Shown here: piece by piece, positions 18,938-42,811 of the stretch | Layout of the letters: each line of letters opens with the position of its first letter | Position numbering within the stretch: position 1 is the stretch's first letter | NCBI GenBank assembly: GCA_046294845.1 | Contig: JBKBNU010000002.1 | Coordinates: 10,940 to 74,939, forward strand | Direction of reading: 5' to 3' | From: Micavibrio sp. | GTDB lineage: Bacteria > Pseudomonadota > Alphaproteobacteria > Micavibrionales > Micavibrionaceae | Length of the DNA stretch: 64,000 nucleotides | The notes under the pieces: generated by a model | Databases searched by the model: none | What the model saw: the letters and a program-made list of their open reading frames with translations, nothing else | Told to the model about the DNA's origin: nothing | Made by a program: the position numbers and the translations under genes

Positions 18938-19440
18938 TTCCTAAATAAATAGCCAAGAATTAAATAGGCAGCTATTGCATCAAACAGATAAAAATATGCG
19001 TCGTTTGAAAAAGGCCAATATTTTAAAAGCGCCACAAAAAAAGAGCACAGACCTGCTATAAACATAAGAAGGCTAAACATCCGTACTACGCTATAATTTT
19101 GAAGCAATGGCATTTTAGGCTTTTTAGGCTTACCAGATGCAAATGTTGCTGGATTGAACGCCTCTATTTTTTCCAAATAGCTCTCGAGAACATCTCTAAC
19201 TCTCAGTAGTGATAAAGAAAATGCTATATTACAGACACCCGCAAAAACCATGAGCATAAATCTTATACCGTCATCAATTTCTTCCGCTACTCCTGCACCG
19301 TACCAAAGCCCACCAGTGATAGTTATAGCAATTATAGGTATATGGTTTATCTGAGATATAAGACTTCTAGCCTGCTCAAAATTATGCTGAAAGCTAAGCT
19401 GTTCACGCAGACCAGGTTCTGGAAGTATGTTGCCGCTCAT
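18934..19440 (-). CDS. Hypothetical 4-TM membrane protein
   Basis: 168 aa with four hydrophobic helices. ATGA-type overlaps on both sides (19437/19440 and 18934/18937) argue that it is translated within the operon. Confidence 0.55.
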   Translation of the reverse strand: MSGNILPEPGLREQLSFQHNFEQARSLISQINHIPIIAITITGGLWYGAGVAEEIDDGIRFMLMVFAGVCNIAFSLSLLRVRDVLESYLEKIEAFNPATFASGKPKKPKMPLLQNYSVVRMFSLLMFIAGLCSFFVALLKYWPFSNDAYFYLFDAIAAYLILGYLFRK

Positions 19441-22400
19441 GCCGTTACCTTTTTCGGAGTGTCTTCTTCAGGTTTTGTGCGTTCAATAATTTCCGCGCCA
19501 ATATTAGCAAGAGCCGCGAGCAGCAACTCAGAGCCTTCTTCAAAATGCCCATTCAAAGCATTTTTAATGCGGCTTTCTATATCCTGAATTTCCTTTTGCG
19601 CCGTGCGTTTGACGGTAAATTCATGCACGTAGGTTTTCGGTTTGCCATCTAGTCCAACCATAAAAGCGACAGCTTGCCGGTAGTCTTCCCGGTTATGAAT
19701 ACGACCGTATGTTTCAGTGTGATTGAATTTATGTGCCAGTTCAGCAATCCGCAGTTTGGCCTTGTTTACATCAAGATCAATCCAGTCCCGCGCTGGCTTT
19801 CCGGCCGCAAGGCTAGCGACTCCCTCTATATCGGGCCTATCGCCTTTATAACTGGTTAAACGGGCCGCAAAAGCATCAAGTGTGAAATCGCCTGAAATCT
19901 GCATAATATTCTTGGCGCGATCATTCAGTTCTTTAAGTCCCTCCACACCATCCTGATCTATCTGCAGTTCGCTGTGCAGCGTGTTACTCAAATCCCGTAA
20001 CATGGCAGGATATGCTCCAACCAACTCCTTCAGGCTTGCCTTGACTTCCTCTATAATAGGCTGCACATCACCTTTATTCAAATTGTCTTCATATTCTTTG
20101 AATAGATGTGGTAAATCATCAAAAAGTACTTTGTTTGGGTCGCTCGCATTTTTAACGAGTTCGCGTAGCCGGATCGTGTTCTTCTTTAAATGTTGGGTTC
20201 GTAGAACCCACGGCGGCAGATTAATAACAGTACCCACCAGACGCCGGGCTATAATCAAAGGCTCTGACGTTTCTGAAAGCTTTTCCTGTTTAGGCTCTAT
20301 TTCGTTCAGAATATCGCACACACCCGCGAGGATCTTCTGCCCCACATCGGAAAAGTTCATTTGCCGCAGGCCAATATCTTTTGGGCTTCTCATCAAGTAG
20401 TCTATGAAAAGATCGTCTATACTAGGGCGATAAACGCCTTCGAGATAGGTCGCATAATCGTGAATCCTAGTCAAAATATAAGCCACGGCAAAGAATGGCA
20501 GCAGCCCCTCCTTGACACCGAAAGGCGGCTTCGACCAGATTTCATACAATTCTGTTAGATCAACAGCCTTATCTTTGCTCTTAAAATATTTGTCGGTTTG
20601 CTTCCAAAGGGGAAGCAGCCGACAGGTATCCTGTTTTGCGGAAGGTTCTTTGAATATTTTGCCGTCATATAATCCGCTCTCAGAAATCAGTGTTTCAAAC
20701 AACCCACCCTCTGCCGGATAGCCCTGAATTCCTAGCCGTTCCTGACCCTGATTCTCGACCATAGCTTTCAGCAGGATTTTTAGGGCAGCATTCGAATTAC
20801 TTGAAGGTTTGATCCGATTTGCCAGCTCGCTATTTACTTTCGGGCTAGCCGAATAAAGCTGATCGGCCTTTTCAGAAGCTAGCGCGTGAAGAGCTTTGAA
20901 GCTAAGCAAAGCTGGTGAGTCACCGTCTATATACCATTTTGCCGAAGACAGGGTTTCCGTCAAACTTTCTTCCAACCGGTTTCGCATCGAGGCAAGACGC
21001 GTGTCCACTTCCCGTCGCGCAACGGTATCCCCCCCCAAAGCAGGATTATTTGTCCTGACCCACTCTAAAGCCTGGACTTCTCTGGCATAACTTCTAATCA
21101 TCCATGAGTTCCCTGCAACACTGACAATCACGGGCCAATTTTTATTTGCCTCTGATACTTTCTTGCACAACCTACCGAGCGATTGTGTCGTATCGGATTC
21201 AGTCCCCAGGACAACCATTAGAAGGCCCATAGCGCCATCCACTGGCTCAAAATTTTCTGCCGTAGTAATTGCTTGTTCTGCAGGCACAAGATCAACATTC
21301 ATCCACCGTAACGCCCCTGTATCGTGATAGTGCCGCTTGGCAACAACAGGCTGGAAGCGGGCCGCCTTTTTCAGGCGGTCAAAATCCAGATCAGGCACAT
21401 GGTCATGAGCCCTTTGAATAGACGCATCTATATCAAAATCACTTCCCTCATAGAGAGAGTATGCTTTTTTGTGTTTCTTGAATAAAACGATTGACCATGC
21501 TTCTAGCTCCGAAAGCGTCTCATCCAAAGCCTGCGCGTTCATATCCGACAGACATTGAAGCAATAGACCTTTTTCAGGAACAAGCCCGGATCGTTCCTGA
21601 AACATGTCCATCATGGCTATAGTCTTAATAACATACTGCGCGTTTAGATCACCGCCATTCGCTTCTGCCCGAGCGAGTGCATCAACAGCGAGCGACCAAC
21701 GGTGTCCATCAGGGGACGCCATAATAGAGGGCTCTAGATTTGATCTTAGATAATCCCAAAGCCGGGCTGGGGAGAATAGTTCTTTTGAGCTGGCCTTTGT
21801 ATTTTTCAGGTAGTCTTGAAATCCATTAGGTTCAGAAGAATTTAAAAAACCAAATACGCTGCGTTGGTTCTGCCCAAAACGTCTTCTCGATACCGGTCCG
21901 AGCAGCGCGGCCGTTGCCGGGTGAAGCGGCCAACACATTGTCAAACTTTCTGCTAACACATCAGCATTCACGGGTCGCCAATTTGATATGTGCTTGGCCA
22001 CAGAACGTGCAACTGGCGTTATCTTTTCTGGTTTTTCAGTGGACAGAATGGCGCGGCCGATAATGTCGATCAGCTCTTCCCCAGCCACATTCAGCGGCAT
22101 ATCAACATAGCGTCCCTGAATTTTCGACCATTCATCTCGCATATCCCGGCTCAAACGCCGTGCGTATTCAGCAAAAGCCTGGTGAAGAATACCAAGAACC
22201 ACGATCTTACCCTTGCTTCGAGCCGCGAGTTCCGCAAGCTCCTGAAAGAAATAAATATCGTATTCTCCTTCTGCGGAAGCTTCGAGAAACTTACCCATCT
22301 CATCAATGACGATGAACAAGCCACACTCTTCTTTTGCAGCTACTCTTTTTATATATTCGAAGACACCTTCCTTAGCGCTCGGTTTCCCGACCCCCTTTAT

Positions 22401-22802
22401 AGACTGTACGGCCTCGATCAGCAGTTTTTCGGCAGACCCTTTATGGCCTACAAGCGGTGCGAAGGTCCATCCGGCTTTTCCGGTAACACCAAACGCCTTT
22501 TTAATCGCCTTGGCATCATCATTCTTTAGGTTCTTTTCTATCACCTTACGCAGCTTCTGATCTTTACCAAGCAGGGCGTTCAGGGCGACAACGAGGCTAG
22601 ATTTTCCAGACCCGTAAGGGCCAGTCCATGTAAAAGCGGCTTCGCCGGCATGCTCAAAACCCTTCGCCATGTTCAGCAATACGTCCACAGACGATTGCGG
22701 GCAGATGAAGCTCTCGATTATGTCCTGATCCCCAATATCGGCGTCAATCCGAATTGACCTTTGGAATCGTGAACTGACTTTCACATGATCAACGAGCATC
22801 AT
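19437..22802 (-). CDS. sspC: Large P-loop ATPase (SspC-like; BrxC/DUF499-like architecture)
   Basis: 1121 aa. Walker A TGPYGSGKSS, Walker B LFIVIDEMGKF. Sits between the DUF4007 and PAPS-reductase-like genes, as in Ssp cassettes. Confidence 0.72.
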   Translation of the reverse strand: MMLVDHVKVSSRFQRSIRIDADIGDQDIIESFICPQSSVDVLLNMAKGFEHAGEAAFTWTGPYGSGKSSLVVALNALLGKDQKLRKVIEKNLKNDDAKAIKKAFGVTGKAGWTFAPLVGHKGSAEKLLIEAVQSIKGVGKPSAKEGVFEYIKRVAAKEECGLFIVIDEMGKFLEASAEGEYDIYFFQELAELAARSKGKIVVLGILHQAFAEYARRLSRDMRDEWSKIQGRYVDMPLNVAGEELIDIIGRAILSTEKPEKITPVARSVAKHISNWRPVNADVLAESLTMCWPLHPATAALLGPVSRRRFGQNQRSVFGFLNSSEPNGFQDYLKNTKASSKELFSPARLWDYLRSNLEPSIMASPDGHRWSLAVDALARAEANGGDLNAQYVIKTIAMMDMFQERSGLVPEKGLLLQCLSDMNAQALDETLSELEAWSIVLFKKHKKAYSLYEGSDFDIDASIQRAHDHVPDLDFDRLKKAARFQPVVAKRHYHDTGALRWMNVDLVPAEQAITTAENFEPVDGAMGLLMVVLGTESDTTQSLGRLCKKVSEANKNWPVIVSVAGNSWMIRSYAREVQALEWVRTNNPALGGDTVARREVDTRLASMRNRLEESLTETLSSAKWYIDGDSPALLSFKALHALASEKADQLYSASPKVNSELANRIKPSSNSNAALKILLKAMVENQGQERLGIQGYPAEGGLFETLISESGLYDGKIFKEPSAKQDTCRLLPLWKQTDKYFKSKDKAVDLTELYEIWSKPPFGVKEGLLPFFAVAYILTRIHDYATYLEGVYRPSIDDLFIDYLMRSPKDIGLRQMNFSDVGQKILAGVCDILNEIEPKQEKLSETSEPLIIARRLVGTVINLPPWVLRTQHLKKNTIRLRELVKNASDPNKVLFDDLPHLFKEYEDNLNKGDVQPIIEEVKASLKELVGAYPAMLRDLSNTLHSELQIDQDGVEGLKELNDRAKNIMQISGDFTLDAFAARLTSYKGDRPDIEGVASLAAGKPARDWIDLDVNKAKLRIAELAHKFNHTETYGRIHNREDYRQAVAFMVGLDGKPKTYVHEFTVKRTAQKEIQDIESRIKNALNGHFEEGSELLLAALANIGAEIIERTKPEEDTPKKVTA

Positions 22803-22805
22803 TTT

Positions 22806-23774
22806 TTAGGCCGCCTTTTTATATGTGTTTTTTTCATAGTCGCTTTTTAAGAATGCAAGCTCGTCAATTTTATCAAGGGACTTATTTGCAATTACCTGCC
22901 TTAGACCTGCTGTTTCAGACCAAGTAAGAAGGCCCTTTGAAATTTTTTCGATCCCATATAACCGGCCAGCCACAGCGTCTTCATCAAGACAGAAGACACG
23001 ACCAGGGGAGCAAGGTTCATATGCCACTGTTTCTAGTGAAAGGGTGCGCGAACTGCCCGTATAACGCTTCCAGAAATCCATGAGGGCGTATAAAAACACA
23101 CCCGATCCCAAGGACGGCTGCGTGCCACGCTTGATCTGAAATATATCGTTTTTATTGACGGGCTGAATCAGACCCAATTCTGCAAGCGGGCTTTCAATCT
23201 GATCTTCGGTGAAATCATCCAATTTTGACGGCTTGTTTACATAGGTTCTCACGAGGCACTCTACGTCCCGTTTCAGCGTTGCGGCAGAGGATGCTTTCCA
23301 TGAAAGGTTTTCGCATAGGTTCAATAGGTGCTGCGTGACCGTGCCGCGATCAAACTGATTATTATTGAAGTGGCTGAAAAGCCATATGTAGCTAGCTTTT
23401 GCAGAAAACGAAGCGAGGTTCCAATGAATAGCCCATATCGAAGATACGTTTTCCATCCACGGATCAAGCCCCTCATCCGATAATAGAAGCTTTGCAAAAT
23501 CAGTTGTAAAAATACCCTTGTCGCCATCCGCTTCGATGATATGGCAGGAATCGGCCCAATGTCGCATCGAGGCAACCATGTTCTTACCGACACCGAAACG
23601 GGCTATTGCGTCATCACTCAGAAACAGGTCCTTGGCAGCACTTTCCTTGCCCTGAAGCTCCAATTCATAAACGGCATCAAAGACCTTTTTCAGCCACCCG
23701 TAACGTAGAGGGAAAGTTTCATGCCCTGAAAATTGAGGACGAAAATTGTTTTCATATAGTAAACCACGGTTCAT
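22806..23774 (-). CDS. sspB: DUF4007-family protein (SspB-like phosphorothioation-system nickase)
   Basis: 322 aa. N-terminal FSGHETFPLRYGWLKK matches my memory of DUF4007. First gene of the minus-strand operon, divergent from the cysteine desulfurase. Confidence 0.7.
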   Translation of the reverse strand: MNRGLLYENNFRPQFSGHETFPLRYGWLKKVFDAVYELELQGKESAAKDLFLSDDAIARFGVGKNMVASMRHWADSCHIIEADGDKGIFTTDFAKLLLSDEGLDPWMENVSSIWAIHWNLASFSAKASYIWLFSHFNNNQFDRGTVTQHLLNLCENLSWKASSAATLKRDVECLVRTYVNKPSKLDDFTEDQIESPLAELGLIQPVNKNDIFQIKRGTQPSLGSGVFLYALMDFWKRYTGSSRTLSLETVAYEPCSPGRVFCLDEDAVAGRLYGIEKISKGLLTWSETAGLRQVIANKSLDKIDELAFLKSDYEKNTYKKAA

Positions 23775-23917
23775 GTGATACCTTCTTGCTGGAGAGCAGT
23801 TCCAGTACGAGGCTACAATTTGAAATTGGCAAGGTCAAGCTGGAAGAGGTCTCCAGTTTTTGATACTCTTGGCAACAACAACTCAGAGAATATCGCAAAT
23901 TATATAACTATATTAGT

Positions 23918-25090
23918 ATGATAAAAGAAAATACCATATATCTTGATTTTCAGGCATCGACCCCTGTGCGTCCTGAAGTAATGGCTGCTATGCAACCTTA
24001 CTTCTCCGAATTATACGGCAATCCCCACGCCAACGACCACATAAAAGGGTGGGAAGCAAACAAAGCTGTGGAGAATAGCCGCTTTAAAATCGCGCGAGCC
24101 ATAGGCGCAGATGAGGATGAAATCGTTTTCACTTCCGGGGCCACGGAAGCGAACAACATGGCTTTGAAGGGGCTGGAGAAGTACCTGCAGGCAATAGGCA
24201 GAGACACTATTCTTGTCAGCACCATTGAGCATAAATGTATTCTGGAATCAGCTGCATATATGAAGGAGCGCGGCTTTCAAGTCACGCATGTACGGCCCAA
24301 TTCTGACGGTATAGTTACAATAGATGCCTTAGAGCACGCAATGACGGACAGGGTAGGACTAGTTAGCGTCATGCTCGTAAATAATGAAATCGGCACGGTA
24401 CAGCCCGTTCAGGAATTGGCCCAAATTACCCACAAGCACGGGGCGCTGTTCCACACGGACGCTGCGCAAGCACCTGTTTTCATGGCCCTAGATATGGACG
24501 AGTTGGGCGTAGATTTTATGAGCCTATCGAGCCACAAGGCATACGGCCCTAAAGGAATAGGCGCTCTCTACATCCGTAGGGACCTTAAAGATAAACTACA
24601 GCCCCTAATGCACGGCGGCGGGCAAGAGGACGGGCTGAGATCAGGAACCTTGCCGACCGCACTTTGTATTGGTATGGCCGCTGCCCTGGAATTATGCGCC
24701 GCGGAGAATGAAACCAACGCTCAAAAGCTTGGAAAGCTTTCGCATCAATTCTGGCAACAGTTAAAAGGCAGTATTCCCGAAGCTATTCTTAACGGGTCAC
24801 ATACATTAAGGCATCCCGGAAACCTGAATATTTTATTTCCCAGAATAAAGGCATCGCACTTTCTTCAATCCCTGCAACCTAATATTGCTGCGTCTACAGG
24901 CTCAGCATGTAATAGCGGCATCGAAAACCCGTCATATGTTCTGGCAGAGATCGGACTCGACCTACAAGAAGCTTCAGCCTGCATCCGATTCAGTTTTGGA
25001 ATTAACCAAACACCGGAGCAGATCGGGAATGCAGCCACTATCATCTGCAGGGTTTATAAGGAACAGTCTGCAGACCCGTTTGCAGCATGA
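23918..25090 (+). CDS. sspA: Cysteine desulfurase (NifS/IscS class; SspA/DndA-like)
   Basis: 390 aa. PLP-lysine motif SSHKAYGPKGIGALY, GATEANN, and active-site loop STGSACNSG. Confidence 0.88.
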   Translation: MIKENTIYLDFQASTPVRPEVMAAMQPYFSELYGNPHANDHIKGWEANKAVENSRFKIARAIGADEDEIVFTSGATEANNMALKGLEKYLQAIGRDTILVSTIEHKCILESAAYMKERGFQVTHVRPNSDGIVTIDALEHAMTDRVGLVSVMLVNNEIGTVQPVQELAQITHKHGALFHTDAAQAPVFMALDMDELGVDFMSLSSHKAYGPKGIGALYIRRDLKDKLQPLMHGGGQEDGLRSGTLPTALCIGMAAALELCAAENETNAQKLGKLSHQFWQQLKGSIPEAILNGSHTLRHPGNLNILFPRIKASHFLQSLQPNIAASTGSACNSGIENPSYVLAEIGLDLQEASACIRFSFGINQTPEQIGNAATIICRVYKEQSADPFAA

Positions 25091-25154
25091 CAAAAGAGCG
25101 CCGGAAATATACAGCGAAAAATTGATAACGATGCGCCTAAGGAAAATTTCATAT

Positions 25155-26444
25155 CTATAGCTCCTCCCAAAGAATTGGATCGTATTTACTATCAATCAAA
25201 AGATGCACGCCTAAGATCTTTCTCTTTTCTTGCTCATTAAGGCTTCTTAATTGCGCGTAATATGAGTTAAAGTACTCAGCAATCTCCTCTGTAAGTGCAT
25301 CGTCCATATCCTTAAACGCATTCTTGTTATTACAGAAAGAATACTGATTACCCCAGCCCTTTAACTTGTTGTGCGCCAATTTCAACGTGTTCACCAAAGT
25401 GTAATCCCGGCTATCTGCCAAACTTGAAGAACGGAAATTCTTAAGCCGGCTCTCCTGAAACAACTCTTTAATTTCATTCTTAATTTTACTGCGAGCCTTC
25501 TTGCTCGGAAAAATACTCCCAGAGTGCAATCTAACCCCTAGAAAATCTATGCCAGAGGCTACATTACCTTTGGCAGCTTTATCAGCATCATCAAATTTTT
25601 CATGCAGATCTAAGCCTAATTCTTTTAGATGTTTGCGACCTTTATTGAAGGCCTTCTCTGCTAAGGTTTTATTCTTAGCCAAAATTAGTAAATCGTCTAT
25701 ATAACGTATGCAAACAACAGCATCCGTATTCATCATTTGATCAAATTCATATAGCAGAATATTGCCCATTAGGGGTGATAGGCACGATCCTTGGGCGACA
25801 CCCTTCTCCTTAGAAGGAAATAAATTCAATACCTCTCTTAAATCATCTTCATTCTTGAGCTGAACCATCAGCGCATTTCTTATTAACTCTATAAACTTCT
25901 GATCTTTCAAATCACGCTGAAGAATTTGCAAAACTTTTTCTTGGGAGATGTTTGAGAAAAAACTCTTAATATCTGAACGGATATAATAATTACTACCGTT
26001 CTTGATAGCTCTAGCTGCCGCCTCAATAGCTTCTGGAACACCCCTTAACTTTGATTCCTGGTATCCCTCAGGTCTTCTAACTCCACCAAAGCTAAAGGGA
26101 AACGCAAGATACTTTTGAATTTGGGGAGCACCTTGAAGAACATCCAAAATAGCACGCTGGACGATACGGCTTCTTAAAGAGGGAATGACAATAGGCCTTG
26201 GCTTCTTCTTACCAGGTGCTTTTATCAAAATCCCTTTAGAATGATCAAAAATAAAGCGGTCCTCTCTAAGCTCTCTTTGTATTTTAGATAGAACCTTAGT
26301 AATTTCTTTTTTAGCTTGTTTGACTTCATCATTAATTTCAGCAGATTTAGATGTGAGTCCATTATCATAGACCTGCCACCATGCCGGCATGAGATAGTTA
26401 GGAGCTGATCGGAGCTGTTTGTAAAAATCTTGTTTTTTCTTCAT
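25155..26444 (-). CDS. Free-standing group-II-intron-like reverse transcriptase (RT + thumb, no endonuclease domain)
   Basis: 429 aa. RT0 AWWQVYDNG, RT1/2 KKKPRPIVIPSLRSRIVQRA, RT3 SDIKSFFSNI, RT4 GVAQGSCLSPLMGNILL, RT5 IRYIDDLLILA (YIDD), RT7 GIDFLGVRL, maturase-like thumb LKGWGNQYSF. Only 64 nt separate its stop from the convergent sspA stop. Confidence 0.9.
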   Translation of the reverse strand: MKKKQDFYKQLRSAPNYLMPAWWQVYDNGLTSKSAEINDEVKQAKKEITKVLSKIQRELREDRFIFDHSKGILIKAPGKKKPRPIVIPSLRSRIVQRAILDVLQGAPQIQKYLAFPFSFGGVRRPEGYQESKLRGVPEAIEAAARAIKNGSNYYIRSDIKSFFSNISQEKVLQILQRDLKDQKFIELIRNALMVQLKNEDDLREVLNLFPSKEKGVAQGSCLSPLMGNILLYEFDQMMNTDAVVCIRYIDDLLILAKNKTLAEKAFNKGRKHLKELGLDLHEKFDDADKAAKGNVASGIDFLGVRLHSGSIFPSKKARSKIKNEIKELFQESRLKNFRSSSLADSRDYTLVNTLKLAHNKLKGWGNQYSFCNNKNAFKDMDDALTEEIAEYFNSYYAQLRSLNEQEKRKILGVHLLIDSKYDPILWEEL

Positions 26445-26487
26445 CGGCTACCCAGACCCACAAGTTCATTTCCCTGGCCTGCCAAAG

Positions 26488-26612
26488 GGTTCCGCTTCTG
26501 GAGGAGTAACATTACTGCAACCTACCTCTACGCAAACTGCGTCCTGATAGCCTGCGGAGCATATTGCCTCCATATCTATGAAAGCGCCCGCGATAACCAT
26601 CAGCAGAAGAAG
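26488..26612. repeat. 125-bp direct repeat, copy 1 (RT-proximal)
   Basis: ggttccgcttctggaggagtaacattactg...catcagcagaagaag. Base-for-base identical by eye to 26843-26967. Confidence 0.95.
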
Positions 26613-26842
26613 CGTGCGAGTTGTGGAGTAAACCACCGCCAGGCACTTGCATACCGCAAAAGCGGCACGTTTTTGCATGTCATGCGCATAAAGCTCCCCA
26701 TCTTAGCCATCTTACCTTTTTAGCAAAAATGTCAAGCGGGGCGACATGGCCGCCTCTCCCGCGCCTACATAAAAGTCTAGCAGCCGTCTTGTGGATCCTG
26801 AAGCCAGGACAAATTACAGCGTTGTGCTCGACAGGCAGGCGA

Positions 26843-26967
26843 GGTTCCGCTTCTGGAGGAGTAACATTACTGCAACCTACCTCTACGCAAACTGCGTCCT
26901 GATAGCCTGCGGAGCATATTGCCTCCATATCTATGAAAGCGCCCGCGATAACCATCAGCAGAAGAAG
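26843..26967. repeat. 125-bp direct repeat, copy 2 (RT-distal)
   Basis: Identical to copy 1 at an offset of 355 bp. Flanks on both sides differ, so this is not a simple tandem duplication. Confidence 0.95.
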
Positions 26968-27045
26968 TTCCAAAATAATGCCAGAAACCCCAAAAAGACC
27001 CAAGAAGATTTATTGGCACCCCGAAAATCATTAACAGTAATAAAA

Positions 27046-27540
27046 TTACAACCAATTTACCCATGGAAAAATGAGATGAATTGAATGCCCTATCTCCGGA
27101 ATTAGGAGCAAAGAGCCAGCCATCGCTTGAAGTAAGCCCAGGCTTAAAAAGAAGGAGAGAATGGCTGGGAAGGAAGCCACAACCCGAGCCGTTTCATAGA
27201 GCCTCTTTTGAGAGAAATGAACCCCTAGCTGATTTTGTCTTTGTACGTATTTAAGCTGGCAAAAGAGATGAACAAAAAGCGCTCCCTGTATCGAACCTAG
27301 CAATGAAACAATATGAAAAATTATAAAAATCAATGAAAACGGGTACGCGACCGTAGCCTGCCATAAGTTCACATTTCCCGATAAATATGCTCCAGCAGCA
27401 CAATAAAGCACCCAGAGCGCTATTCCCGCTAAAGAAAGGCTTCCAATGCCAAGACCAACCTCGTTAGCGTATGGCTCCCAAAAATGCTCGCGTAGTACTT
27501 CACGTATCCTCTGATCACTCGGCTGCTTAATTTCTCTCAT
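27046..27540 (-). CDS. Hypothetical 4-TM membrane protein (first gene upstream of RT leader)
   Basis: 164 aa with an ATG start and four hydrophobic helices. Same strand as the RT. No family recognised. Confidence 0.55.
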   Translation of the reverse strand: MREIKQPSDQRIREVLREHFWEPYANEVGLGIGSLSLAGIALWVLYCAAGAYLSGNVNLWQATVAYPFSLIFIIFHIVSLLGSIQGALFVHLFCQLKYVQRQNQLGVHFSQKRLYETARVVASFPAILSFFLSLGLLQAMAGSLLLIPEIGHSIHLIFPWVNWL

Positions 27541-27548
27541 CTTTTTCC

Positions 27549-27582
27549 CAAAAAAATCACCAGAGCTAGATCTGCTCTGGTG
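27549..27582 (-). terminator. Rho-independent terminator-like hairpin abutting the RBS of the 4-TM gene
   Basis: On the minus strand, caccagagc-agatcta-gctctggtg (9-bp stem) is followed by a T-rich run (atttttttggg). It ends about 9 nt before the ATG at 27540. Confidence 0.6.
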
Positions 27583-27760
27583 ACCGGGAGTTTAGAAGCC
27601 GTTGTGACACAGCCGCGACGACCTTTAAGCCGAAGCTTTGGACATACGCCGCCGCCTCCCGGCCATAAGCCGAGGGCGACGTGAAGACACGGACACGTCA
27701 TCCGGTCACAATGGGGTTCTAAAGTCCCAGTCATCTTTGCAGACGACATAAGGCTTTATA
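27583..27760 (-). ncRNA. Candidate structured GC-rich leader / ncRNA
   Basis: Long-range pairing gtgaccgg/ccggtcac encloses hairpins gacgtg..cacgtc, cctcgg..ccgggagg and gcggcg..cgtcgc. The last has an inner aagc-UUCG-gctt tetraloop. No credible ORF is present. Class unknown. Confidence 0.3.
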
Positions 27761-27858
27761 GCCGATGTAATAATTAATGAAAACTCAATAATGAAGGGCT
27801 TCTAGAGGTCCTAAATAGCCCTCTAGACGTAATCAAATGTAATCAATGTCAGCATTTG

Positions 27859-28539
27859 TCAGTCAGGAATCCTATAACCCTTAAACCTAACCCCCGCCGC
27901 TTCTAGTGCGAGTTGGATCTCAGCACCAAAGCGATCCTGGCACATAGCCCTTTTGAAATCATTGGGGCATATAATCACGCCATCTACTTCTTGGAGATCC
28001 ATAATCCACGCTTGATATACGCCCTCGCCAAGCTTCTCCTTAAGCTCCTGCTTCCACAGCTCTGATGGAATAGGTACGAGCAGCGTAGCATGCCCTTCTG
28101 TAGGCAAGGATACGCTGCTTCTATTATCTGTCTTTAATCTTTGGATAGGATTGCGTTCGCATTTTTTTGGCAATGCATTTGCATTTCCCTTACCCCATCT
28201 TTTCAATGCATTAGCTCGATTTTCAGCGCTTCTATCATTCACTCTTTTAATAGCGTCCAAGCAAAATTCGTTAATTATACGAACGCCTTTATTCTTCCCT
28301 GAAGGAATTTCTTTGAAAGAAAATCTGCTTAATACGGTTTCGGATAATCCGCCATTCCAAACCTTGTCACTCACACGAGCTATTTGTGCGAGCTTCTTGG
28401 TGTCATAAGGCAAGCCGTCTTCGCCCTCTTGAAAATGAGCAAGTATAAGTAATGTAAACGCTCCAATATCGCGAGCGTTCATCCAGAGGATCTCACTACT
28501 GAAATCACCCACATTTAAGGGAAATGTATGACGTTTCAT
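27859..28539 (-). CDS. DUF1376 (YdaU-like) phage/island-associated protein
   Basis: 226 aa. The N-terminus FPLNVGDFSSEILWMNARDIGAFTLLILAHFQEG resembles the DUF1376 consensus. 1-nt overlap with the alpA-like gene's stop. Confidence 0.65.
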   Translation of the reverse strand: MKRHTFPLNVGDFSSEILWMNARDIGAFTLLILAHFQEGEDGLPYDTKKLAQIARVSDKVWNGGLSETVLSRFSFKEIPSGKNKGVRIINEFCLDAIKRVNDRSAENRANALKRWGKGNANALPKKCERNPIQRLKTDNRSSVSLPTEGHATLLVPIPSELWKQELKEKLGEGVYQAWIMDLQEVDGVIICPNDFKRAMCQDRFGAEIQLALEAAGVRFKGYRIPD

Positions 28540-28736
28540 TACATTTTTCCCAAGAGAGTACGATTTGTTATCCAGTTCTCTATATCAGATTCTAACCACC
28601 CGACAGAACGCTCACCTAATTTAATGGGCGTAGGAAACTTTGTGGGCATATAGGCATAGATAGAAGAACGAGATAAGCCTGTTTTCTTAATAACTTCCGG
28701 CAGCCTAAGTATTCGATTGTTCATATTTACCTCCAC
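28539..28736 (-). CDS. alpA: AlpA-family transcriptional regulator / excisionase-like
   Basis: 65 aa. RILRLPEVIKKTGLSRSSIYAYM...ERSVGWLESDIENWI is a typical AlpA/MerR-like helix-turn-helix. Confidence 0.8.
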   Translation of the reverse strand: MEVNMNNRILRLPEVIKKTGLSRSSIYAYMPTKFPTPIKLGERSVGWLESDIENWITNRTLLGKM

Positions 28737-28809
28737 TAGGATTTATCAAGATCCTAATGGAGCAGAAACATTATCCCGGAAACACTAGGGGGAAACCTTT
28801 CCGGGAAAA

Positions 28810-29451
28810 TTAATCATCAGCAATCATCTCTAAAAACATTTGATTAATAAGCATCAGAAAATGGGGAGCATTATTTGAAACATCCTCATCATTCAAAATA
28901 TTATGGTAGACGGCTACGAGACTAGTCTTAGTGGCTTCTACATATCTGTTTTGCAAGGTCTTCGGAGTAAGTACGTCCCCATTTGAACGAATATCGCACC
29001 AAGGGGGCTCTCTAAGTAAAAGGTCACATGCCCCAGAAATATTCTGGTTGCGAGCCGCCATCATGTTAGAAACATCAAAATAGAGCTTCGCTAATGCAAA
29101 CTCATTCCAGAAGGTGCCTCGACCACCCTCTTTTTCTTGAATAATCTTAAACCCCGGAACATGATCTTTAGCCAACTCAAGAGCCAAAGCTCTCCAGGCA
29201 CCGTCCTTTTTAGCAACTATATTGTGATGGCGCATTAACGCTGTCAGTTTTTTATTATACTCACATTCGACATGATGAACGGTAGCCATCAGCTCTTCCA
29301 GCTTTAGCCTAGCTTTTACAGCCTTAACCTCAGGAGTTTCTCCTCCATCCAAAATTGTTGACGGCGGAAATTCTCTCTTCGCAATTACAATAGGCTTATT
29401 AAGAATGCCTTTATATTGTCTTCTGAGTTGACCAGACTTTCTCGGCATCAT
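28810..29451 (-). CDS. Hypothetical island protein
   Basis: 213 aa on the same strand as the integrase. Its start region overlaps the integrase 3' end by 41 nt. No family recognised. Confidence 0.45.
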   Translation of the reverse strand: MMPRKSGQLRRQYKGILNKPIVIAKREFPPSTILDGGETPEVKAVKARLKLEELMATVHHVECEYNKKLTALMRHHNIVAKKDGAWRALALELAKDHVPGFKIIQEKEGGRGTFWNEFALAKLYFDVSNMMAARNQNISGACDLLLREPPWCDIRSNGDVLTPKTLQNRYVEATKTSLVAVYHNILNDEDVSNNAPHFLMLINQMFLEMIADD

Positions 29452-30658
29452 ATTTCTCCATTAATTTTTCAAGATGTTCAGCATACCAATCCATCATCCT
29501 ACGACGTTCGGCAAGATACTCTGCATGATTATAAACTCCGCGTACTTTATTTATCTCAACGTGAGCTAGCTGCCTCTCAATATGATCACGATTAAAACCA
29601 TGCTCATTCAAAATTGTAGAGGCGGTATGCCGAAATCCATGTGGTACGACTTTCCTTTCGCCTATGTAGCCCATGATTATTAGTACCTTAGTAAGGGTAA
29701 CGTCAGATATGGGTTTTTGGTTATTCTTAATACTAGGAAATAAAAGATCATGATTTCCAGTTATTTTCCTAAGTTCAGATAAAAGAGCCATTGCTTGGGG
29801 AGACAAAGGCACAACATGATCCCTGTCCATTTTCATTCTTTCTGCTGGGATCTTGAGTACAGCCTTGTCCTCATTCACATCATCCCAACGGGCATTACGT
29901 AGCTCACCGGGGCGCACAAAGGTAAGCACAAGCAACTGCATCGCTATGCGCACATAATCGCGCCCGTGGTAGCTGGAAAGCTTATTCAGAAACTCAGGTA
30001 ACTCATCCTCTTTCAAAAATGGGCGATTCTTTGCTTTTGGTTTTTTAATAAATTTTGCTCGCCCTAATGCCGGATTATCTTCACAGACACCCTTAACAAT
30101 CGCGTAGTCAAATATTCCTACACAGCGCTGGCAGATCCTCTGAGCCACATCATAAGCCCCTCTTGCCTGAACATTAGTGAGTACAGCAATTATATCTTGC
30201 CTCGACACATCAGTAACTTGCTTATTACCAAGGAATGGAAATACGTCATCCTCAAGAGAGCGTAAGATATTACTTGAATGCTTAGACACCCATGTACCTT
30301 TGCTGTGCCACTCACGTCCTAAAGACTCGAATGTTGTACTTTGGTCGCCGGGCGATTGAATTTGAGACTTTTTGTGCGCACTAGGATCAATACCTTGTGC
30401 TAACAGCATCCTTACTTCGTACCGCGCCATCCGCGCATCTTTTAACCCGACATGACCGGGAACGTCCTTTTGTATATACGGCCCAATAGTGTAAGTTTTG
30501 CGCCTATCCTTATATATATAATTGTAGTGCCAAACCTTTGTTCCAGACTTTCTAACCAGCAGACAAAGGCCTTCACGGTCATAGAGCTTGTAATCCTTCT
30601 CCCTGGGCTTAGCGGCAAGTATATCTTTATCGGTTAATCCTAGAGCTTTTTTCGGCAT
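29411..30658 (-). CDS. int: Tyrosine site-specific integrase (P4-type, DUF4102 arm-binding N-terminus)
   Basis: N-terminus LTDKDILAAKPREKDYKLYDREGLCLLVRKSGTKVWHYNY. Catalytic region has HGFRHT and LAHVE..VRGVYNH. I place the start at the internal Met (MPKKALGL, 30658) rather than the ORF-track start at 30745. Confidence 0.9.
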   Translation of the reverse strand: MPKKALGLTDKDILAAKPREKDYKLYDREGLCLLVRKSGTKVWHYNYIYKDRRKTYTIGPYIQKDVPGHVGLKDARMARYEVRMLLAQGIDPSAHKKSQIQSPGDQSTTFESLGREWHSKGTWVSKHSSNILRSLEDDVFPFLGNKQVTDVSRQDIIAVLTNVQARGAYDVAQRICQRCVGIFDYAIVKGVCEDNPALGRAKFIKKPKAKNRPFLKEDELPEFLNKLSSYHGRDYVRIAMQLLVLTFVRPGELRNARWDDVNEDKAVLKIPAERMKMDRDHVVPLSPQAMALLSELRKITGNHDLLFPSIKNNQKPISDVTLTKVLIIMGYIGERKVVPHGFRHTASTILNEHGFNRDHIERQLAHVEINKVRGVYNHAEYLAERRRMMDWYAEHLEKLMEKYDAEKVWSTQKTI

Positions 30659-30829
30659 ATTCGTTTCCTTTGCGGTACAGAAGCAAAATTGAACTGAATA
30701 TACCGTGTACTGTACCCTCAAAAATCTTGGAATAGGCTGATGCAAATAGGAAGCCCCTGGACACTAAAACCTGTTTATAGTTTTAGTTTCAAGGACTTAA
30801 AGACGATTTAGGATTGTATTGGAAGTTGA

Positions 30830-33167: not shown

Positions 33168-33244
33168 TGGCGCACCCGGCGAGATTCGAACTCACGACCT
33201 TTGCCTTCGGAGGGCAACGCTCTATCCAGCTGAGCTACGGGTGC
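33168..33244 (-). tRNA. tRNA-Arg (anticodon CCG)
   Basis: Minus strand GCACCCG-TA-GCTC-AGCTGGATA-GAGC-G-TTGCC-CTCCGAA-GGCAA-AGGTC-GTGAG-TTCGAAT-CTCGC-CGGGTGC-G-CCA. Complete cloverleaf with encoded CCA. Confidence 0.93.
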
Positions 33245-42404: not shown

Positions 42405-42441
42405 AAAAAGAAATGGGCCGGTTCTGTTGCTAGGCCGGCCC
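42403..42441 (-). terminator. Rho-independent terminator of ssrA
   Basis: Minus strand: gggccgg-cctagcaacagaa-ccggccc followed by atttcttttttt. Confidence 0.7.
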
Positions 42442-42777
42442 GCGCCCCACCTTAACGATAGTTAGTCGATAAGGGATTTAGACTTCGTGCAAACTGCCCT
42501 ATTAGGCTGCAACAGCGAAACGACCATTGTCGTTGGACGCTACTACGTTTGCGAACTTGAAGTTATCGTTGGCATTTAATTGCCTGGCCGGATAACGACC
42601 GTACCATAACGGATACAAACTCTGCCTTTACCACGCGCGTCAATCCTGTTTCGGCCCCGCCTGAATGCCCGCAACCTGTTAAGGCGGGGAATTCTGGTGG
42701 AGCCGCCGGGCACTGCCCCCGGGTCCACAACGTCTATTCTACAAAGCGTTTAGCATCTTAGCCGGATTACTCCGGCA
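42414..42777 (-). ncRNA. ssrA: Circularly permuted (two-piece) tmRNA gene
   Basis: The acceptor piece ends ..ccggg-ggcagtg-cccgg-cggctcc-A-CCA at 42695. The coding piece begins GGGGCCGAAACAGGATTGACG at 42658 and pairs with the acceptor 3' strand, including a G3:U pair. The tag ORF 42573->42499 reads ANDNFKFANVVASNDNGRFAVAA followed by TAA TAG. The CCA end lies upstream of the 5' acceptor strand, so the gene is permuted. Confidence 0.8.
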
Positions 42778-42783
42778 CTAATG

Positions 42784-42811
42784 ATTATAGGGTAAAAGAC
42801 TGAAAAATCAA
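42784..42811 (-). promoter_or_regulatory. Sigma70-like promoter for ssrA
   Basis: Minus strand TTGATT-(16 nt)-TATAAT. This places the transcription start near 42777. Confidence 0.5.

Follow-up and report, generated by a model that had tools for sequence, protein, structure and literature searches.

The stretch of Micavibrio sp. DNA analyzed here (the window; 64,000 nt, assembly GCA_046294845.1, contig JBKBNU010000002.1, positions 10,940-74,939 of the forward strand) carries a gene for a reverse transcriptase (RT) preceded by two identical direct repeats. This locus is a new Micavibrio example of a known element, the group II intron-like 4 (G2L4) RT with its paired repeats, termed LDRs. Four features of the locus and its relatives (two predicted promoters, a covarying LDR fold, three spacer-leader helices and a small open reading frame (ORF) with the signature of a -1 frameshift) are apparently new with respect to the G2L4 literature, as far as that literature shows. 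Our interpretation, to which we assign a probability of roughly 0.6, is that the two-LDR cassette known from this family is a post-transcriptional control unit for the RT gene that it precedes. The elements on which the argument turns are as follows:

25155-26444, minus strand: RT ORF (429 aa), containing RYIDDLLIL and LKGWGNQYSF
26488-26612, minus strand: proximal repeat, LDR-B; same sequence as LDR-A, lying within a small ORF (ORF Y) from codon 23 on
26843-26967, minus strand: distal repeat, LDR-A; predicted structured RNA module P1-P4, identical to LDR-B and beginning at the predicted start of the transcript from promoter P1

The G2L4 reverse transcriptase and its repeat pair

The best matches to the window RT among solved structures are 9d5x_A and 9d4s_A ("Group II intron-like 4 reverse transcriptase"; E-value: 1e-66, 229 bits), and the next best match after these G2L4 chains is a group II intron RT (E-value: 4.9e-18). 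Residues 8-419 of the window protein align to residues 5-409 of 9d5x_A, covering the N-terminal extension, RT0-7 and the thumb. In this alignment RYIDDLLIL is placed opposite RYIDDFLLL of 9d5x, with YIDD common to both; YIDD in place of YADD in RT domain 5 is a hallmark of the G2L4 group (Toro & Nisa-Martinez 2014; PMC4244168). Pfam detects RVT_1 (E-value: 2.5e-21) and gives a weak, sub-threshold match to GIIM (group II maturase), and the intron RT/maturase model TIGR04416, which has a cut-off of 300 bits, yields 161.8.

The protein ends with the thumb and has no DNA-binding/endonuclease domain, its stop codon lies 64 nt from that of the convergent sspA gene, and no Rfam Intron_gpII or group-II-D1D4 match was obtained at E ≤ 1 in positions 24900-28000. 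Models for other RT classes fit poorly: retron_St85_RT scores 59.5 bits (cut-off 235), with no Rfam retron RNA in 24900-28000, the DRT2 model NF041746 scores 42.3 bits (cut-off 390) and the Drt3a and Drt4 models score far under their cut-offs. The PADLOC profile RT_UG17 reaches 150 bits, in two stretches that span only profile positions 105-354 of 429. With respect to diversity-generating retroelements (DGRs), the repeat copies are identical in the window, and at other loci, where the copies are 93.5-100% identical, the differences are co-inherited and not A-specific. By these sequence comparisons, the window RT is classified as a free-standing, domesticated group II intron-like enzyme of the G2L4 family. 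A recorded protein from a Micavibrio sp. metagenome-assembled genome is identical to it. An earlier note on this DNA had described a 429 aa minus-strand, group II-like RT with YIDD and LKGWGNQYSF, 64 nt from the sspA stop, and had argued that it was free-standing and not a mobile intron, retron, DGR or DRT2; the gene was found as described, and the Rfam and model scores bear out the argument.

Previous work on this family accounts for the repeats as well. Park, Mohr, Yao, Russell & Lambowitz (2022; 10.1101/2022.03.14.484287) reported two ~140 bp LDRs separated by a ~240 bp spacer and located ≤1 kb upstream of ~70% of G2L4 genes. According to the same study, the units occur at varied genomic places, often near tyrosine recombinases; the LDRs are transcribed, with read depth over them specific to the RT-sense strand; the Pseudomonas G2L4 RT acts in the repair of double-strand breaks via microhomology-mediated end joining; and LDR co-expression "modulated" the effect of the RT on survival after DNA damage. 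The enzyme is a dimer in the 2025 structure paper (structures 9d4s/9d5x). Neither that paper nor a 2026 atomic force microscopy preprint mentions the LDRs, a literature search combining G2L4 with non-coding RNA (ncRNA) and LDR terms returned no further work on them, and the text of Park et al. makes no mention of a peptide. The earlier note had proposed an undescribed defense module. The window locus belongs to the known G2L4 kind, and neither part of this proposal is sustained: "undescribed" is refuted by the structure match and by the published repeat pair, and "defense", while conceivable, is unsupported, as double-strand-break repair by end joining is the sole demonstrated G2L4 function.

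A repeat search of the window returned a single family, consisting of the two 125 nt copies with 100% identity. The copies are 355 nt apart from start to start, with a 230 nt spacer between them, and the proximal copy ends 43 nt before the RT ATG. When up to three mismatches were permitted, a 61 nt core of the repeat occurred only twice in the 64 kb (expectation from shuffles: 0), and exactly one frame per strand is free of stops across the 125 nt. The earlier note's description of two 125/125-identical repeats offset by 355 bp, with one stop-free frame per strand, is confirmed by these results.

A scan of one genome per species identified 80 related loci, 72 of which had enough upstream DNA for analysis. 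The 80 loci are distributed among Acidobacteriota, Nitrospira, alpha-, gamma- and delta-proteobacteria, Bdellovibrionales, Zixibacteria and others. Following self-comparison of the 1.5 kb upstream of each RT, a canonical repeat pair was found in 47 of the 72, so the suggestion that the repeats are tied to the RT holds across many phyla. The family repeats are 108-194 nt in length, and within a locus their identity is 94% or higher. Most offsets fall within 334-383 nt, and 12-75 nt separate the end of the proximal copy from the RT start; the layout of the window locus is typical. Offsets show no preference modulo 3, and the 125 nt unit of the window is not a multiple of 3. One RT of the set (L064) matches the crystallized enzyme over its full length with 777 bits, which indicates that the published LDRs are represented among these loci; L064 shows every cassette feature described below.

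Between related loci, sequence identity is 66-99% for the LDR, 48-94% for the spacer, 50-100% for the leader and 54-94% for the RT nucleotides, such that LDR, spacer and leader are conserved at least as well as the RT. Identity in the 150 nt upstream of LDR-A is ~50%, which is the random level (with the exception of one near-identical locus pair at 90%), and the conserved unit therefore starts at the distal LDR. The two LDRs of a locus are kept identical by strong concerted evolution: 250 of 254 between-locus LDR differences are carried by both copies, the copies are perfectly identical in 21 of 46 loci and their median identity is 99.2%. The active homogenization that the earlier note had deduced from the window alone is borne out by these counts. 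In a Bdellovibrionales metagenome-assembled genome, one locus (L018:2045-2926) contains three LDRs and two identical spacers, with a perfect 506 nt self-match at offset 376; this arrangement points to tandem expansion of the LDR-spacer unit and complements single-copy loci such as L002.

LDR RNA, promoters and spacer-leader helices

The LDR is predicted to fold in the RNA of the RT-sense strand as a covarying multi-hairpin module. The window LDR has a folding energy of -46.5 kcal/mol in RT sense (z = -3.25), while its antisense folds no better than shuffles (z = -0.37), and the same asymmetry is observed in nearly all loci. MAFFT alignment of all 41 LDRs followed by RNAalifold recovered one helix only. 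A subset of 15-16 sequences was used because the full set is too diverged; for the subset alignment, 21 pairs were predicted and 18 of them show compensatory changes. A covariance model was built from 16 loci, with the window left out. Using default filters, this model matched 34 loci, 18 of them outside the building set; all matches are on the RT strand and nearly all are just upstream of the RT. In the resulting alignment, which is fitted to the model and hence leans towards the structure, 83.8% of cells are paired (compared to 35-48% when partners are slid), 33 of 36 pairs show compensatory changes and none of 500 shuffles reaches the observed value. The covariation check proposed in the earlier note therefore gives a positive result for a conserved RNA structure upstream of the RT.

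With default filters, the model did not report the window copies. When the filters were turned off for a 4 kb stretch searched on both strands, the window LDRs ranked first and second, at only 10.7 and 8.0 bits. They appear to be very diverged members with the same P1-P4 layout, and because of these low scores their homology is judged mainly by where they lie, by their architecture and by the conserved elements that flank them. Searches against Rfam 15 gave no match in the window region, in 20 loci (gathering scores) or in nine loci (E ≤ 0.5), indicating that the LDR RNA is not a curated family.

Two promoters are predicted, one at the edge of the distal LDR (P1) and a second in the spacer (P2):

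26975-27003, minus strand: promoter-like site P1 (TTGGGT, 17 nt, CATTAT), ending 7 nt before LDR-A
26709-26735, minus strand: spacer promoter P2 (TTGACA, a 15 nt interval containing an AAAAA box, TAAGAT)

When 46 loci were compared, the highest-scoring sigma-70 match ahead of the distal LDR was at a fixed place in most of them, with the -35 element ~40-46 nt before the LDR and the -10 element ending 4-13 nt before it. Scores are as high as 12/12, the mean best score is 8.07 (6.84 in shuffles) and sites close to perfect occur in several loci, L003 (TTGACA-17-TATAAT) among them. P2 is strongly conserved in the 41-locus spacer alignment as TTGaca/TTGcc, 16 nt with an invariant AAAAA, and TAnnnT. 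A promoter/terminator scan of 26300-27700 reported no promoter; it missed the window P2 because its hexamers are 15 nt apart.

The edges of the repeat coincide with predicted features of expression. Its 5' edge (26967 in the window and the same place in other loci) is the predicted start of the P1 transcript, as would be expected if homogenization passed via an RNA copy. In many loci, its 3' edge coincides with the small ORF's stop codon.

The spacer and the RT leader contain complementary segments that are predicted to pair:

26831-26840, minus strand: H1a, first spacer nucleotides, complementary to H1b in the RT leader
26783-26820, minus strand: S1 hairpin, with a stem of 26816-26820 and 26783-26787
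26811-26814 and 26788-26795, minus strand: Xa and H2a, exposed in the S1 internal loop
26769-26775, minus strand: U-rich tract following the extended S1 stem, CUUUUAU here (family consensus GCUUUAUUU) and conserved in the 41-locus spacer alignment; terminator or internal loop
26457-26483, minus strand: RT leader, with H1b at 26473-26483, Xb at 26468-26471 and H2b at 26457-26464, the last ending 12 nt before the RT start

When every pair of columns across the cassette was scanned blindly, the interaction ranked first was that between the initial nucleotides of the spacer and those of the RT leader, and a second interaction joins the spacer to a later part of the leader. Four helices (H1, X, H2 and the local hairpin S1), with 30 pairs in total, were then evaluated in the 41 loci, aligned with MAFFT. 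Across the four helices, 90.7% of cells are paired, compared to 24-45% with partners slid, and 27 of the 30 pairs have a compensatory change. Compensatory cells number 265 as opposed to 89 in shuffles, and none of 500 shuffles reaches the observed count. Considered individually, H1 has 10 pairs (nine compensatory, 87.5% of cells paired), S1 has seven (six compensatory), X has five (all compensatory) and H2 has eight (97.9% of cells paired), with H2 variants including CCGUCAG/CUGACGG, CCUGUUGG/CCAACAGG and UCCACAAG/CUUGUGGG. In the leader, H1b, Xb and H2b adjoin one another, and the RT start codon lies 10-25 nt (mostly 12-13 nt) beyond them. In the RT-sense strand, G.U pairs are far commoner than A.C pairs, which argues for pairing in RNA of that strand.

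Based on these results, we predict a hairpin in the ~60 nt that follow the distal LDR. Three covarying helices (~22 bp) would pair its loop and 5' flank with the ~30 nt that separate the proximal LDR from the ribosome-binding region of the RT. In topological terms, this would be either a cis pseudoknot within a single long RNA or a contact of the loop-to-linear type that links two RNAs. A local partner for H1a within the spacer is weakly supported (longest pairing of 7.27 nt compared to 6.40 nt in shuffles), and a search of single-LDR loci for spacer-like leader partners gave mixed, uninterpretable results. S1 and the U-tract were also considered as an intrinsic terminator, which was not supported, the loop being too large and the U-tract lying 6-7 nt from the stem.

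These observations bear on a reading in which the repeats act as DNA, either as recombination substrates or as the ends of a mobile unit (for example, with deletion of the spacer promoter switching the RT, or with the repeats as tyrosine-recombinase sites). Integrases are frequent neighbors of G2L4 units, both in Park et al. and in the window (29411-30745), and unequal recombination would yield loci such as the single-copy L002 and the triple-copy L018. However, the pairing is strand-asymmetric, compensatory changes keep the helices and not the sequence, only the RT-sense strand folds better than shuffles, two promoters are fixed in position and the published read depth over the LDRs is RT-sense-specific. 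The outer flanks also vary from locus to locus, with the cassette next to the RT in every case. We consider a DNA-level role to be highly improbable.

The small open reading frame and the reading of the cassette

Three features overlap at the proximal repeat and its upstream edge:

26466-26678, minus strand: small ORF Y (70 aa, MQKRAAFAVCKCLAVVYSTTRTLLLLMVIAGAF...), the product of which has a basic N-terminus followed by a hydrophobic helix and then a variable tail; its stop is 21 nt before the RT ATG
26600-26699, minus strand: frame X, led by a Shine-Dalgarno (SD) sequence (GGGGAG, 26694-26699), with ATG at 26687-26689, product MRMTCKNVP... and TGA at 26600-26602
26651-26679, minus strand: near-invariant motif CAUGC-AAAAAC-GUGCC, with CAAAAAC at 26669-26675 and a hairpin directly after it at 26651-26668

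The earlier note had found no convincing gene upstream of the RT, a statement that does not stand, as the proximal repeat lies within ORF Y and this frame is widely kept open. An open RT-sense frame is present in 44 of 46 proximal LDRs. Of 41 loci, 39 keep frame Y (in which the motif is read as ATG CAA AAA CGT GCC) open from the motif until the proximal LDR ends, compared to 5.9 expected, and the other two frames are open in zero and eight. The predicted products start with MQKRA, have a net charge of ~+4.5 and continue with a hydrophobic stretch from residue 14±4 and a variable tail. The hydrophobic segment is universal, with a mean maximal hydropathy of 2.16 as opposed to 0.45 in the other frames. 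The P. aeruginosa counterpart is annotated by PGAP as a 64 aa hypothetical protein (WP_124169534.1) that ends at the proximal-LDR edge, 66 nt before the RT, and an exact-sequence look-up found similar small-ORF calls in other Pseudomonas genomes. A Pfam search with eight ORF-Y peptides, including that of the window, returned no family.

The start of this frame is less conventional. An ATG in frame Y is present in 25 of 41 loci only, and none of the 41 has an SD sequence ahead of it. In 33 of 41 loci, an SD-led ATG or GTG precedes the motif by 5-17 nt, always in frame X (+1 phase relative to Y) and in none of the loci in the other two frames; frame X always closes. Because SD-led starts occur only in frame X and frame Y is the one kept open, the arrangement has the comparative signature of a -1 frameshift, and it is plausible that a shift from X to Y at C_AAA_AAC makes the small peptide. 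AAAAAC is kept in at least 90% of the 41 loci, and the hairpin that follows is moderately supported. Frame X was also considered as a coding sequence for a short peptide ("CKNVP") and rejected, since AAAAAC shows no synonymous variation and the compensatory changes in the hairpin lead to radical amino acid changes; frame analysis after this rejection gave frame Y as the one kept open.

The distal LDR copy lacks the MQKRA start region. This fact, together with the strongly maintained peptide frame, could suggest that the small ORF is the only real gene and that the distal repeat is a non-functional partial duplicate (pseudogene). Such a duplicate would diverge. Instead, the 250 of 254 differences found in both copies come from Acidobacteriota, Nitrospira and alpha-, gamma- and delta-proteobacteria, and the distal copy has its own position-fixed promoter and is followed by a covarying antisense-like stem-loop. 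We give this explanation almost no credence.

Our preferred reading, that of a post-transcriptional control unit, can be set out as a series of steps. Transcription from P1 would yield LDR-A continuing into the antisense-like S1 stem-loop, and the mRNA from P2 would carry the short frame, the peptide ORF and then the RT. The S1 loop and flank of the P1 RNA would pair with the P2-mRNA leader beside the ribosome-binding region, in trans or in cis, and this spacer-leader pairing would set the level at which the RT, and perhaps the peptide, is translated. The folded LDR modules are likely to be the RNA that accumulates, namely the abundant RNA observed by Park et al., and may be bound by the dimeric RT. 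The peptide would probably be made by a -1 frameshift at C_AAA_AAC from the SD-led short frame. The near-neutral peptide sequence (see below) would fit a nucleotide constraint acting mainly at the level of RNA, with the copies kept identical by conversion.

Several points weigh against this interpretation. First, the cassette is not universal, as approximately one third of G2L4 loci lack the pair and the closest relative (L002, 65% identity) has the proximal copy only. Second, Park et al. (2022; 10.1101/2022.03.14.484287) observed RT-dependent repair in E. coli when the LDRs were absent, which indicates that the cassette is not needed for catalysis. Third, the expression signals in the window are imperfect: P1 is weak (7/12), the P2 hexamers are 15 nt apart and no clear terminator follows the distal transcript in the promoter/terminator scan or the S1 fold. 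Fourth, sequence alone cannot separate cis from trans pairing. Fifth, ORF Y evolves in a near-neutral manner, with 232/217/265 differences by codon position and 124 synonymous as opposed to 378 non-synonymous changes (compared to 476/351/1285 and 842 synonymous/651 non-synonymous for the RT as a control), such that its function as a protein is uncertain. Finally, the candidate slippery heptamer is non-canonical at its first position, and the hairpin is 0-1 nt after it, closer than classical stimulators.

A more ambitious version of this reading is that G2L4 loci are tripartite modules, and not lone repair polymerases. They would consist of a separately promoted RNA (distal LDR plus antisense-like stem-loop), a membrane-targeted peptide with the proximal LDR as its coding body, made by a programmed -1 frameshift, and an RT gated at translation by the three helices, with the LDRs kept identical by continual conversion. 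This conversion may proceed through RNA or the RT, given that the first position of the repeat is exactly that of the predicted transcript. We propose this version tentatively and regard it as doubtful in its entirety. If true, the module could link the output of RT and peptide to signals of DNA damage or phage, and G2L4 would be close in logic to defense systems comprised of an ncRNA, an effector and an RT.

The locus could instead be a DRT-like defense module, in which the RT copies the LDR RNA, the terminal redundancy serves for template jumping and the membrane peptide is the effector, as in DRT10. DRT10 corresponds to UG17 and consists of an ncRNA, a SLATT membrane effector and an RT with YVDD (PMC12632851; 10.64898/2026.04.29.721553). 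The order of structured RNA, small membrane-type ORF and RT parallels this system, and the RT_UG17 score of 150 bits, the integrase-bearing island beside SspABC and the proximity of the P. aeruginosa copy to a TIR-domain gene and a recombinase all agree with it. RNA-mediated copying would also fit the perfect homogenization and a repeat whose 5' edge is the predicted P1 start. However, the G2L4 match is far better and full length (229 bits) in comparison to the partial RT_UG17 match, no SLATT or other known effector was found with Pfam or PADLOC, and the active site is YIDD as opposed to the YVDD quoted for DRT10. The demonstrated G2L4 activity is DNA repair that depends on the RT and proceeds without LDRs, no cDNA or phage phenotype has been reported, and the repeat unit and offsets show no relation to multiples of 3. 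A defense module of this kind is unlikely, in our judgement.

The comparative anatomy described here gives concrete hypotheses on the role of the G2L4 LDRs that can be tested cheaply. They bear on whether an RNA partner of its own still serves an intron RT after domestication, and on whether G2L4 is nearer to the RNA-guided defense RTs than the label of "repair polymerase" suggests. For annotation purposes, this RT with YIDD and its upstream repeat pair should be recorded as G2L4 with LDRs and not as a novel system.

Genomic neighborhood and comparison with known systems

A gene and an ORF adjoin the RT and its cassette:

23918-25090, plus strand: sspA (PADLOC SspA, E-value: 1.6e-137), convergent with the RT gene
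27046-27540, minus strand: 164 aa ORF containing several stretches of hydrophobic residues; it lies immediately upstream of the cassette and shares its orientation

The phosphorothioate-based Ssp system occupies 19437-25090, with SspA on the plus strand and SspB and SspC on the minus strand; its PADLOC scores are very high, and sspB and sspC lie beyond sspA. Pfam, NCBIfam and PADLOC assign no family to the 164 aa ORF. This membrane-like protein was considered as part of the cassette and rejected, given that it has no family and that the DNA upstream of LDR-A is unrelated between loci. Upstream of it is a sub-threshold Rfam match to sRNA-Xcc1 (27574-27664, minus strand; 31.1 bits against a gathering score of 53, E-value: 0.0099), the 3' end of which overlaps a terminator-like hairpin (27585-27555). 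The backbone of the island follows at 27859-30745 on the minus strand and encodes a DUF1376/DnaA_N-like protein (27859-28539), a 65 aa protein that by eye resembles AlpA-type regulators (28539-28736), a 213 aa ORF without an assigned role and a P4-type tyrosine integrase (29411-30745). An integrase-bearing island around the RT fits the remark of Park et al. on integrases near G2L4 units. A tRNA-Arg(CCG) gene (33168-33244) and a tmRNA gene (42411-42787) are also on the minus strand; ARAGORN marks the latter with an asterisk, which we take to denote the permuted, two-piece type usual in Alphaproteobacteria, in keeping with the assignment to Micavibrio. In P. aeruginosa, a conjugative megaplasmid (NZ_CP131792.1; L083:4408-6184) carries a G2L4 cassette followed by a recombinase-family gene and a TIR-domain gene, a setting that resembles a defense island.

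The candidate frameshift resembles that of IS1, in which insA-insB' is expressed by a -1 frameshift at an A6C motif. In both, a short SD-led frame runs into an A-run ending in C, with a long open frame in the -1 phase. C_AAA_AAC differs in having five As and a hairpin at 0-1 nt, and it is a candidate proposed from sequence. A second parallel is with the antisense RNAs of type I toxin-antitoxin systems and of plasmid copy-number control, which act through loop-to-linear kissing followed by helix extension. The window likewise has a candidate gene for a small hydrophobic peptide beside a predicted, separately promoted structured RNA, and an exposed loop complementary to a nearby mRNA leader. In contrast to those systems, the complementary target is located after the peptide ORF and before the RT instead of at the peptide start, and the RNA has the same sense as the ORF body and is identical to it.

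Group II introns offer a third comparison. In Ll.LtrB, the LtrA protein represses its own translation by binding domain IVa of the intron, with which its ribosome-binding site overlaps. Intron loops (exon-binding sites EBS2 and EBS1) also pair with exon sequences (intron-binding sites IBS2 and IBS1). The window is similar to the former in that an intron-type RT gene is preceded by a predicted structured RNA abutting the ribosome-binding region, and to the latter in that contiguous targets would be recognized by separate loops in the same 5'-to-3' order. The differences are that no intron domains are detectable with Rfam in the window or in 20 loci, that there is no splicing context and that the structured module is duplicated.

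With DRT10/UG17, the window shares the order of a structured RNA with its own predicted promoter, a membrane-type protein gene and an RT close behind, along with the partial hidden Markov model cross-match of 150 bits. It has no SLATT domain (Pfam and PADLOC on the 164 aa ORF; Pfam on the ORF-Y peptides), and the gene downstream of the RT is sspA. By its stronger, full-length match, the RT is group II-like G2L4 and not of UG/Abi class 2, with YIDD and not YVDD; the RNA duplicates the coding body of the small ORF, and G2L4 has no known tandem-repeat cDNA or defense activity.

The closest counterpart is the G2L4 system of P. aeruginosa AZPAE12409. The window belongs to a different class of bacteria (a Micavibrio metagenome-assembled genome, Alphaproteobacteria), its RT has ~40% amino acid identity to the Pseudomonas enzyme, for which alone a function is known, and its LDR is highly diverged (8-11 bits with the covariance model from other loci), with a weaker P1 and the 15 nt spacing in P2. 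Both systems show full-length RT homology, YIDD and the lack of an endonuclease domain. Both have two direct repeats (125 nt here and ~140 nt there) that are ~230-240 nt apart and ≤1 kb upstream of the RT, and each is found, together with an integrase, in an island that was acquired horizontally. The Pseudomonas-type loci L064, L066, L077 and L083 have the same small ORF, predicted promoters and spacer-leader helices as the window.

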